The notes under the pieces are model-generated. The model was not told where the DNA came from, did no database searches, and saw nothing but the letters and a program-made list of their open reading frames with translations. Both the position numbers and the translations under genes were made by a program. 64,000 bases of DNA, from NCBI GenBank assembly GCA_040768745.1, contig JAXGMI010000001.1:928001-992000 (forward strand). Reading direction: 5' to 3'. Shown here one piece after another: positions 60,735 through 63,790 of this stretch (its first letter is position 1; each line of letters starts with the position of its first letter). This DNA comes from Desulfomicrobium sp. GTDB taxonomy: Bacteria > Desulfobacterota > Desulfovibrionia > Desulfovibrionales > Desulfomicrobiaceae.

Positions 60735-60771
60735 AAAAGAAGGCCATCCCAGAACGGGATGACCTTTCTTT
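60735..60771. terminator. Probable bidirectional terminator between convergent genes
   Basis: AAAAGAAGG-CCATCCC-AGAAC-GGGATGA-CCTTTCTTT. Confidence 0.6.
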
Positions 60772-61411
60772 ATTCCTGGCGTGGGGGTTGATGGGGCATA
60801 TGTTCCTTGCTGCGGAACAGGTTGAAGATAAAACGGAAGACCTTTTTCACGCCACTCCAGATTTTGGGCAAAAGCCAAATCATGAGGGCAATGAAGCACA
60901 CGAAGAGGGCCAGGAAAAGGAAGGGATGGTTCAGAGCCATCCACAGTCCGCCCACGACCATGACGTCCTCGCTCACCGAGGCGGCCCAGTTGCTGAAGGG
61001 CTCGGGGGAGGCGTTGATGACGATCCGGGTTCCTGATTTGGCTGCGTGGGAAACAGCAGCCACACCCCCGCCAACCAGGGCCGCAGCCAGGGATAGCGAC
61101 GGATCCACGGCACCAGCCGCTCCTGCCGCCAGCACCGCTCCTGCCGGGATGCGCACAAAGGTGTGCAGGGTATCCCAGCCCGTGTCCACCCCAGGGATTT
61201 TGTCGGCCACGAATTGAACAACATACATGAAGCCAGCGGCCAGCAGTACGGCCGGGTGGGCCAGGATCTGCAGATCCGGAGGAAGTTGTACGCCCCCGCT
61301 CATGCCCATGATGCCGAGCATGAGCACCGCTGCGTAGAGATTGATGCCGCTGGCCCAGGCCGTGCCCATGGTCAGGGCGATGATGGTGGCGACATGCGAG
61401 AGTTGGTCCAT
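60770..61411 (-). CDS. DUF4126 membrane protein
   Basis: AWASGINLYA, ADKIPGVD..WD.LHTF.RIPAGA, K.G.R..IN.SPEP.SN...S..ED; AGGAGG RBS. Confidence 0.88.
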   Translation of the reverse strand: MDQLSHVATIIALTMGTAWASGINLYAAVLMLGIMGMSGGVQLPPDLQILAHPAVLLAAGFMYVVQFVADKIPGVDTGWDTLHTFVRIPAGAVLAAGAAGAVDPSLSLAAALVGGGVAAVSHAAKSGTRIVINASPEPFSNWAASVSEDVMVVGGLWMALNHPFLFLALFVCFIALMIWLLPKIWSGVKKVFRFIFNLFRSKEHMPHQPPRQE

Positions 61412-61585
61412 ATTCACCTCCTGCTTGTTTCTCGGTGCTGTTCTTTTTTTTGTTCGTCAATCCCCAGTTTATAAAACCGTCAAGACAAACACCTGAATTC
61501 ATTTTTTGAACAGGCAATGAACAGAATTATCAGCCGCAGGGAAAATGGTTGATGTGTTCGCAAAAGTATTATTGCAATGTTCGGA

Positions 61586-61946: not shown

Positions 61947-62405
61947 TTATGAAGCCCATGTGAAGGTAAAAAGGCATGCGGGCGCCCCCTGCATGATGGT
62001 CCTGGAGCGGTACATGGACAGGTTTGGGCTGTAGCCCTGGGCAAAGGGTTCATCCCGGGAACAGGACAGGATGGACCCAAGTTCCGGTGCCAGGCCCATG
62101 TCAGCATAGGATTGGGCATAGCCGCAGGCCGTCACGGCGAAATGCAGGGCCGTCTCAGTCAGGCGGATGTCTTTTATATTCAGCGCACCTCCGTCCTGCC
62201 AGCGGTCCAGGACCGTGGCAAAATGGTGCAGGCTCGCTCGGCCCGGGGCCGTGCGGGCAAACGTTTCCCCCGCACATCGGGCGTCGGCTGCGATGGCTGC
62301 GACCAGGATCGCACTGGCCCGCTCAGTGCCGACCTCCTGTCTCAAGGATTCCCAGATGCGGGCGACAAGTCCGGCCTGGGCGATACGAATGGCAAGCATG
62401 TGCAT
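61947..62405 (-). CDS. L-2-amino-thiazoline-4-carboxylic acid hydrolase-family protein
   Basis: F.VT.C.YA..Y..MG...LG..LSC.RD.....GY.P......TIM.GA..C.F.F pattern. Confidence 0.75.
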   Translation of the reverse strand: MHMLAIRIAQAGLVARIWESLRQEVGTERASAILVAAIAADARCAGETFARTAPGRASLHHFATVLDRWQDGGALNIKDIRLTETALHFAVTACGYAQSYADMGLAPELGSILSCSRDEPFAQGYSPNLSMYRSRTIMQGAPACLFTFTWAS

Positions 62406-62449: not shown

Positions 62450-62857
62450 ATGTTTCAGGGCCACTTGTTCATCAGCTGCCGGCGGCTGGAATGTCCCGGC
62501 CATGATCCTTTTCTGGTTGACGAGAGCAGGGCCGACTTGGAGTCATCCGGCCAGAGAATGCTGCTCTGTCGGGCCTGCGGCCAGCCCATCGCCAGCCCCA
62601 GGGACCGGATCGAGGTGGGCGGTAGACACATCCATGCCCTCTTCAACCCTATGGGCATTCTTTTCGAGGTCGGTTGCTTTGCCCAAGCCGGGGGGTGCGG
62701 CTTCGGTGGGGATTCCACCCTCGCCTTCACTTGGTTTGCGGGATATGCATGGCGTTTTGCCTTCTGCCGCCAGTGCTCCGTCCAACTTGGCTGGGAATAT
62801 CAAAGCCGGTCGGACAGGTTTGTGGGTCTCATCATGACCGAACTGCGTGAGTCATGA
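62450..62857 (+). CDS. Bacterial cereblon-family (CULT / thalidomide-binding domain) protein
   Basis: LLCRACG..I, H..FNP.G..F...CF, FTWFAGYAW....CRQC..QLGWEY, F.GL: two CxxC pairs plus the three-Trp cage. Confidence 0.88.
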   Translation: MFQGHLFISCRRLECPGHDPFLVDESRADLESSGQRMLLCRACGQPIASPRDRIEVGGRHIHALFNPMGILFEVGCFAQAGGCGFGGDSTLAFTWFAGYAWRFAFCRQCSVQLGWEYQSRSDRFVGLIMTELRES

Positions 62858-62995
62858 TTTGTCCTTGTCTCTGGGCTGCCAACTGCAGCCCTTGGTGGCT
62901 GGGCCTCAGCCATGAATCCCGATTTTCGGGAATACGACCTTGACCAGCACGATCCATACGCCGACGATAAGCAAGACATACAACAGATCTTCCAT
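62852..62995 (-). CDS. Small single-TM protein, candidate selenoprotein (UGA at codon 30; 29 aa if it is a stop, 47 aa if recoded)
   Basis: GAGGAGGG RBS; MEDLLYVLLIVGVWIVLVKVVFPKIGIHG-UGA(62908-62906)-GPATKGCSWQPRDKDKS*; SECIS-like hairpin downstream of the UGA. Confidence 0.65.
62873..62891 (-). promoter_or_regulatory. Putative bacterial SECIS element
   Basis: GGGCUGC-AGUUG-GCAGCCC starting 15 nt after the UGA; apical loop starts at +22 with G in position 2 followed by U. Confidence 0.55.
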
Positions 62996-63007
62996 ATTTC
63001 TCCCTCC

Positions 63008-63697
63008 TCACATTCCAAGCAGTTCATCCACGAGAAGCGGCACGCGCCGGGTGGCCTTTTCACGGAACACCCTGGCTCCCGGGATCCACCCCGGTTCGGC
63101 CTCGGGATCAATGACGAATACCACCGCCCGTGCCGGGGCCTCATGGGCCAGGGATGCCGCGGGATATACGGCCAGGGACGTTCCGATGATCAGGAGCGTG
63201 TCTGCCGTGGCCACCACTGCGCTCGCTTTGTGCATCATGGGTACGGGTTCCCCGAACCAAACCACGTCGGGCCGGAGCTGGCTGCCCAGGGGACAGGTGT
63301 CACCCATGCGGATGGGTCTGTATCCGATGTCCACGACTAGGTCCGGGTCCGCGGAGCTGCGTGCCTGGCACAGCTGGCCGTGCAGGTGCAGGACATTGGT
63401 TGAGCCGGCCCGTTCATGCAGATTGTCCACGTTCTGGGTGACTATTGTGACCCGGTACCCTTGCTCCAGACGGGCAAGGGCCGTATGGGCCTTGTTGGGC
63501 TGCGCGATTTCCAGTTGGGCCCGGCGCTGGTTGTAGAACTCCAGGACCAGTGCCGGACTCCGGGCAAAGGCTTCTGTTGTGGCCACGTCCTCGATGCGGT
63601 GCTTGAACCACAAGCCACCGGCACCCCGAAATGTGGGGATGCCGCTCTCGGCGCTGATCCCAGCGCCGGTCAAAACCACGACGTGTTTATAGTCCAT
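63008..63697 (-). CDS. cobB: NAD-dependent protein deacylase (sirtuin, class III-like)
   Basis: LTGAGISAESGIPTFR, FYNQRR, QPN.AH, TQNVD.LHERAG, HLHG, LRPDVVWFGE, GTSL.VYPAA. Confidence 0.92.
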   Translation of the reverse strand: MDYKHVVVLTGAGISAESGIPTFRGAGGLWFKHRIEDVATTEAFARSPALVLEFYNQRRAQLEIAQPNKAHTALARLEQGYRVTIVTQNVDNLHERAGSTNVLHLHGQLCQARSSADPDLVVDIGYRPIRMGDTCPLGSQLRPDVVWFGEPVPMMHKASAVVATADTLLIIGTSLAVYPAASLAHEAPARAVVFVIDPEAEPGWIPGARVFREKATRRVPLLVDELLGM

Positions 63698-63790
63698 GAA
63701 TGTTCCTGCGGATGAGGGCTGGCCGCTGCCCCATGTGTTTCGCATAGCACAGGGCAAGGGGCTGCAAAAGGGAAAAGGGGGGTGTTTTTC

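Follow-up and report, generated by a model that had tools for sequence, protein, structure and literature searches.

A small Desulfomicrobium gene probably encodes a single-helix membrane selenoprotein of a neglected family

A 47-codon gene on the minus strand (62995-62852) of a 64,000-nucleotide stretch of Desulfomicrobium sp. DNA (the whole of which we call the window) appears, from its translation and homologues, to encode a single-helix membrane selenoprotein. We consider it very probable that the in-frame UGA at codon 30 (62906..62908, minus strand) is read as selenocysteine (Sec), because the genome carries the Sec machinery, almost every homologous locus has TGA at this codon, the frame stays open beyond it, a positioned hairpin follows, homologues with Cys at the same position exist, and no match was found in Sec-negative genomes.

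The frame consists of 29 residues, a TGA as codon 30, 17 further codons, and a second TGA; were the first TGA read as a stop, the product would end at 29 residues. A sequence-only reading of this DNA had described such a frame, with one transmembrane (TM) helix and a Cys seven residues after the UGA, and all of these elements are present on the minus strand. A plus-strand reading of 62852..62995 was rejected, as it is not the gene. Also as described, a strong ribosome-binding site (GAGGAGGG; 63002..63009, minus strand) precedes the gene and 12 nt separate the stop codon of the upstream cobB from the ATG. Its AGGAGG is 7 nt upstream of the ATG, the site overlaps the cobB stop, and an RBS-like word is found upstream of 101 of 126 homologous loci. 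The predicted TM segment spans residues 4-22 (62930..62986, minus strand; Kyte-Doolittle 19-residue mean 2.83). It runs into the family motif P-[KR]-[LIMF]-G-[IV] at the helix end (residues 23-27; 62915..62929, minus strand), in which P and G are each found at 92% of the 126 loci. The helix is preceded by a slightly acidic N-terminus and followed by basic residues, and conservation within the family is highest in the first 29 residues. An AlphaFold2 model of a Cys homologue (P0094) has a helix at residues 2-25 with pLDDT >90 and a low-confidence tail. Contigs from the RNA runs of one study span 62725-63725, the UGA included, although strand, level, and whether this is a single transcript cannot be deduced from them. 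A promoter search returned one promoter-like site, at chance level.

Consistent with Sec insertion, selA, selB, and selD were all found above cut-offs in the genome together with a tRNA-Sec, a check that the sequence-only reading had proposed, and selD itself has an in-frame TGA. ARAGORN reported a 92-nt tRNA with an undetermined anticodon at G000:C1:800738-800829. The SECIS-type hairpin (GGGCUGC-AGUUG-GCAGCCC; 62873..62891, minus strand; -13.3 kcal/mol) has a 7-bp stem and an AGUUG loop, and the codon for Cys37 (U+7; 62885..62887, minus strand) lies inside its 5' arm. As the earlier reading had it, the hairpin begins at the 15th base past the UGA; the loop begins 21 nt past it. The accompanying claim that there is no U-tract on either strand also held, and no terminator-like site was found at the hairpin on either strand. 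Under our own implementation of the published criteria, which is distinct from bSECISearch, the candidate scored positive on all four consensus SECIS criteria. Set against the consensus model of bacterial in-ORF SECIS elements read by SelB (PMC13188914, section 5, Fig. 2), the window copy is nothing unusual: a 5-nt loop with G at position 2 followed by U, a 7-bp stem, a spacing of 21 nt, and -13.3 kcal/mol; many of its relatives have weaker stems by a strict stem-only score. Its position is similar to those of the hairpins after the UGA codons of SelD, FdhA, and NiFeSe-hydrogenase in the same genome (spacings of 20, 23, and 17 nt; -9.9, -9.1, and -6.7 kcal/mol, respectively).

Considered alone, the hairpin is unremarkable (z = -1.5; 12 of 200 shuffles were as stable), and the case for Sec rests on conservation. 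At 110 of the 126 loci, the UGA is followed by a SECIS-type hairpin that reaches -5 kcal/mol or lower. The same threshold was reached after 301 of 1701 control TGA stops (those ending the genome's long open frames), after the second stop at 14 of the 126 loci, and in 6.8% of shuffles. At -7.5 kcal/mol by the strict stem-only score, the figures were 51/126 loci versus 132/1701 control stops. Across the loci, the loop G falls 17-28 nt from the UGA despite widely differing stem sequences. The sequence-only reading had looked to a covarying hairpin for support. A positioned hairpin is conserved; covariation among 23 distinct close sequences was modest, with two compensatory pairs that were matched by 15 of 500 shuffles.

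We scored 173 fetched loci, dropped 8 because of a low score or an offset, and kept 126 after removal of duplicates; these loci are related to one another, and none of the counts is a probability. Four of the eight dropped loci look like divergent members with TGA. Codon 30 is TGA at 125 of the 126 and TAA at one, whereas the next stop in the same loci is TGA in 55, TAA in 53, and TAG in 18. Within 11 codons of the UGA, the frame contains no stop at any locus, whereas 26 and 44 loci have one in the other two frames, and the extension beyond the UGA runs for 11-46 codons. Homologues with UAA or UAG at this position, which had been named as evidence against a selenoprotein, thus came down to a single TAA. 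This allele (L106; G041:C11:52757-52921) lies in a 1.6-Mb Sec-positive genome, retains a visible hairpin and downstream Cys, and has no clear ribosome-binding site, and a congener (G089) has TGA. The locus counts against the Sec reading and is most simply explained as a decaying allele. In three divergent loci (L113, L118, and L120), the motif ahead of the TGA is shortened or rich in Gly, and the hairpin and the Cys are kept.

Conservation past the UGA, another expectation of the earlier reading, was found in the open frame at all 126 loci and in the second Cys. Of the 126 loci, 112 have a Cys codon at positions +4 to +8, compared with 4 and 4 in the other frames. The U-x6-C arrangement described for the window copy is correct for that copy; the family as a whole has U-x4..6-C, and 10 of the 126 loci lack a near Cys. 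Four of the loci without a near Cys (L109-L112) end in a GGCG motif, and in three of them an FmdB-type zinc-ribbon gene with a similar tail motif comes next. RNA constraint contributes to conservation of the Cys, because its codon lies wholly within the stem in 58 of 60 order-level loci, the window's included. The residue is also constrained as an amino acid, since in 23 of 52 phylum-wide loci no part of its codon falls within the stem.

Interchange of UGA and Cys, which had likewise been anticipated, was found among the homologues. We identified 13 proteins (among them the RefSeq protein WP_078683970.1) that carry Cys at the Sec position and read on, two of which are cluster mates of others. 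All 13 retain another Cys, at +5 or +7, and five have a third. Among other proteins, one ends at the Cys, one has Ser, and one has Lys at this position. A motif match annotated 'HesB' was set aside: it has no hairpin and is probably in the wrong frame. Two congeneric genomes differ at the Sec codon, with TGC in G703 and TGA in G157. In G703 the hairpin is degraded in its 3' arm, the second Cys and a Trp are retained, and selA, selB, and tRNA-Sec are still present.

The gene proved to be widespread among sulfate reducers and related bacteria. A profile search matched it in 103 of 201 genomes of the order Desulfovibrionales, and a wider profile in 186 of 401 genomes of the phylum Desulfobacterota, with two matches in nine of the phylum genomes (G224, G264, G273, G327, G335, G403, G438, G441, and G595). 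Among the 150 phylum matches listed, all contain TGA save one with TAA. One large genus has the gene in none of its 37 genomes, 31 of which have selA. Because selA alone did not discriminate (it was found in 191/201 order and 378/401 phylum genomes and missed in 10 and 23, three of the latter having been identified by inference), selB and tRNA-Sec were added to the test. In all nine gene carriers where selA was missed, selB is present and tRNA-Sec matched at about 70 bits or more. No gene match was found in any of the 20 genomes without selA, selB, and tRNA-Sec, six of which belong to the 37-genome genus without any gene match and are not independent. The range outside the phylum is drawn from named proteins and papers. 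One ESM Atlas cluster (123 members, score 0.90; mostly Planctomycetota among the five with a record) may be a relative of the family and is a lead only. As the sequence-only reading predicted, gene callers truncate the gene: 209 of 225 motif-bearing proteins in public gene calls end at the UGA position.

The surroundings of the gene are conserved within the genus only. The upstream sirtuin (SIR2/CobB-like; 63008..63691, minus strand; Pfam SIR2, E 2.9e-42) is indeed co-oriented, as had been noted. It is not a conserved partner, because it lies directly upstream in 8 of 126 loci, all within part of the genus. The convergent gene (62450..62857, plus strand) encodes a stand-alone cereblon-like (CULT) protein (cereblon isoform 4, PDB 4V2Y, E 4.2e-22) and is adjacent in 16 of 126 loci, again all within the genus; flanks were short for four loci in both counts. 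A functional link to either gene was rejected, each being a genus-level neighbor. Within a TCATGA palindrome (62852..62857), the small gene has its true stop and the convergent gene its own. At most loci from this genus, the cereblon-like gene is adjacent and convergent, and the TCATGA double stop is often shared. A second hairpin (62832-62857; 9 bp, closed by two TCATGA words) lies 3' of the true stop and falls within the end of the convergent gene. Further downstream on the minus strand are genes for an ATC_hydrolase-family protein (61947-62405) and a DUF4126 membrane protein (60770-61417). A scan of 150 of the 160 nearest open reading frames at 81 loci revealed no constant neighbor or redox partner.

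How might such a peptide work? SelB would bind the hairpin 3' of the UGA, and selenocysteine would be inserted at residue 30. Basic residues lie preferentially on the cytoplasmic side of membrane proteins (the positive-inside rule), and the charges here suggest that the short acidic N-terminus is outside and the basic tail cytoplasmic. With this topology, the Sec would sit just past the helix, at the cytoplasmic face of the inner membrane. There it would most likely act as the nucleophile of a redox pair, with the Cys 5-7 residues later resolving a selenenylsulfide; the variable spacing and the low-confidence AlphaFold2 tail would suit a flexible resolving Cys. The peptide would then assist or regulate some membrane partner as a small redox-active factor. 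On balance we lean toward this as the best explanation, namely a selenoprotein with a Sec/Cys redox pair that serves a putative membrane partner.

The main alternative, less likely, is that the protein is a selenoprotein that uses the Sec and the second Cys to ligate a metal or an Fe-S cluster, making it a membrane-anchored metal carrier or sensor, with four ligands supplied, for example, by a helix dimer. The retention of the second Cys in every Cys form and the third Cys in five of them would fit this idea, as would the Cys found further along the tail in 5 of the 10 loci without a near Cys. FmdB-type zinc-ribbon genes also lie on the same strand within 1.5 kb at 17 of 126 loci, and MerR, ArsR, and a heavy-metal ATPase are occasional neighbors. 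However, most chains offer only two ligands, the spacing of the second Cys varies from +5 to +10, and 5 of the 126 loci have no second Cys whatsoever. Moreover, no Pfam or NCBIfam metal-binding family matched, and loci with metal-related neighbors are a minority.

Bacterial Sec insertion competes with termination, and the UGA and hairpin could in principle serve mainly as a selenium-responsive switch, in which the balance between the 29- and 47-residue forms or ribosome stalling is the signal and Sec chemistry is secondary. We judge this improbable. The strong conservation of the first 29 residues is in keeping with it, and the TAA allele of G041 would give only the short form, but the existence of Cys alleles, one of them in a Sec-positive genome, fits chemistry over sensing. 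Nor does a leader peptide fit the 45 of 81 loci in which the closest gene downstream is convergent. Finally, that the UGA is an ordinary stop ending a 29-residue membrane peptide, with the hairpin as a terminator or stability element, is very improbable: public gene calls do end here and the hairpin alone is not significant, but this account does not explain why TGA is near-invariant, why Cys forms exist, why stops are missing from this one frame, why a Cys allele has lost the hairpin, or why Sec-negative genomes gave no match, and there is no U-tract.

The family to which we assign the Sec/Cys peptide is already predicted in supplements published in 2008, 2016, and 2025. Dataset S1 of the 2008 GOS paper (PMC2398784), in the part available to us, has a group 'Unknown' with 0 Cys homologues and 15 reads, of which 14 are family-like by eye. 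The corresponding part of Peng 2016 (PMC5029168) gives 'Unknown (Geobacter lovleyi)' in 5 organisms. From the sequences and names, we infer that both entries are the family labeled in 2025. A Geobacter sulfurreducens copy is listed in deep-Sep Data S1. Like the window protein, the members published in 2025 have the same length, a single hydrophobic helix, and an L-P-[KR]-[LM]-G-[IV] motif with U two residues later. They differ in that the Cys follows 5-6 residues after U, rather than at +7, and all six sequences have T-U-[ML] where the window has G-U-G. We filed the window gene in this family because a profile of 36 T-U loci of our own matched that of the window subtype in hhalign (98.7%, E 1.6e-16); the published 2025 sequences were compared with these T-U loci by eye only. 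The window gene would accordingly belong to a predicted but neglected family, in a G-U-G subtype absent from the 2025 sequences.

Judged by names and motifs, the family was not found in the part of Table 1 of a 2026 review (119 families) available to us. Within the portions at hand, it was likewise absent from the hits in deep-Sep Table S1 and not found in the BSepDB supplement text or in PMC9312934, PMC1794560, and PMC1976440. Neither the window protein nor its homologues matched any family in Pfam or NCBIfam 20.0, a PDB sequence search found no family, and no functional study appeared among the literature listed. New here are the occurrence in 186 of 401 phylum genomes, the Cys forms, and the G-U-G subtype; as far as the available parts of the 2008 and 2016 supplements go, the family is far commoner than its published counts of 0 Cys homologues and 5 organisms. 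As the gene is present in about half of the sampled phylum genomes and public calls cut it at 29 residues, selenoproteomes are likely to be undercounted. Earlier lists gave the family as rare and lacking Cys homologues, and neither the current catalogue table nor the HMM libraries searched include it; on this evidence it deserves to be reinstated. With about 50 residues, natural Sec and Cys alleles, and the listed Geobacter sulfurreducens copy, it could be an easy system in which to study selenium at a membrane surface.

Several known systems resemble the predicted protein in part. The KCU-star small selenoproteins (NF033934) are also very small predicted selenoproteins, but they have a CU motif, and the window protein and 11 homologues had no NCBIfam match above cut-off. 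Unlike thioredoxin-fold UxxC selenoproteins, the protein has U-x4..6-C, a single helix, and a low-confidence tail. FeoB-associated Cys-rich membrane proteins consist of a single N-terminal helix with a short Cys-containing tail behind it, a layout similar to that of the window protein, which lacks a Pfam match. No feoB transporter was found among the nearest neighbors scanned, where weak FeoB_N matches proved to be small GTPases. The eukaryotic proteins SELENOK and SELENOS each cross the membrane once and carry Sec near the C-terminus, in a flexible cytosolic tail, whereas the window Sec would lie about five residues after the helix; the likeness is an analogy only. In the part of PMC10298544 available to us, an internal selenenylsulfide is reported for SELENOS and a cofactor role for SELENOK. 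We tentatively propose that the family, possibly among the commonest selenoproteins of Desulfobacterota, is a minimal single-helix redox switch that services or regulates a membrane complex of these anaerobes through a Sec at the membrane surface, a bacterial counterpart in design of SELENOK and SELENOS.
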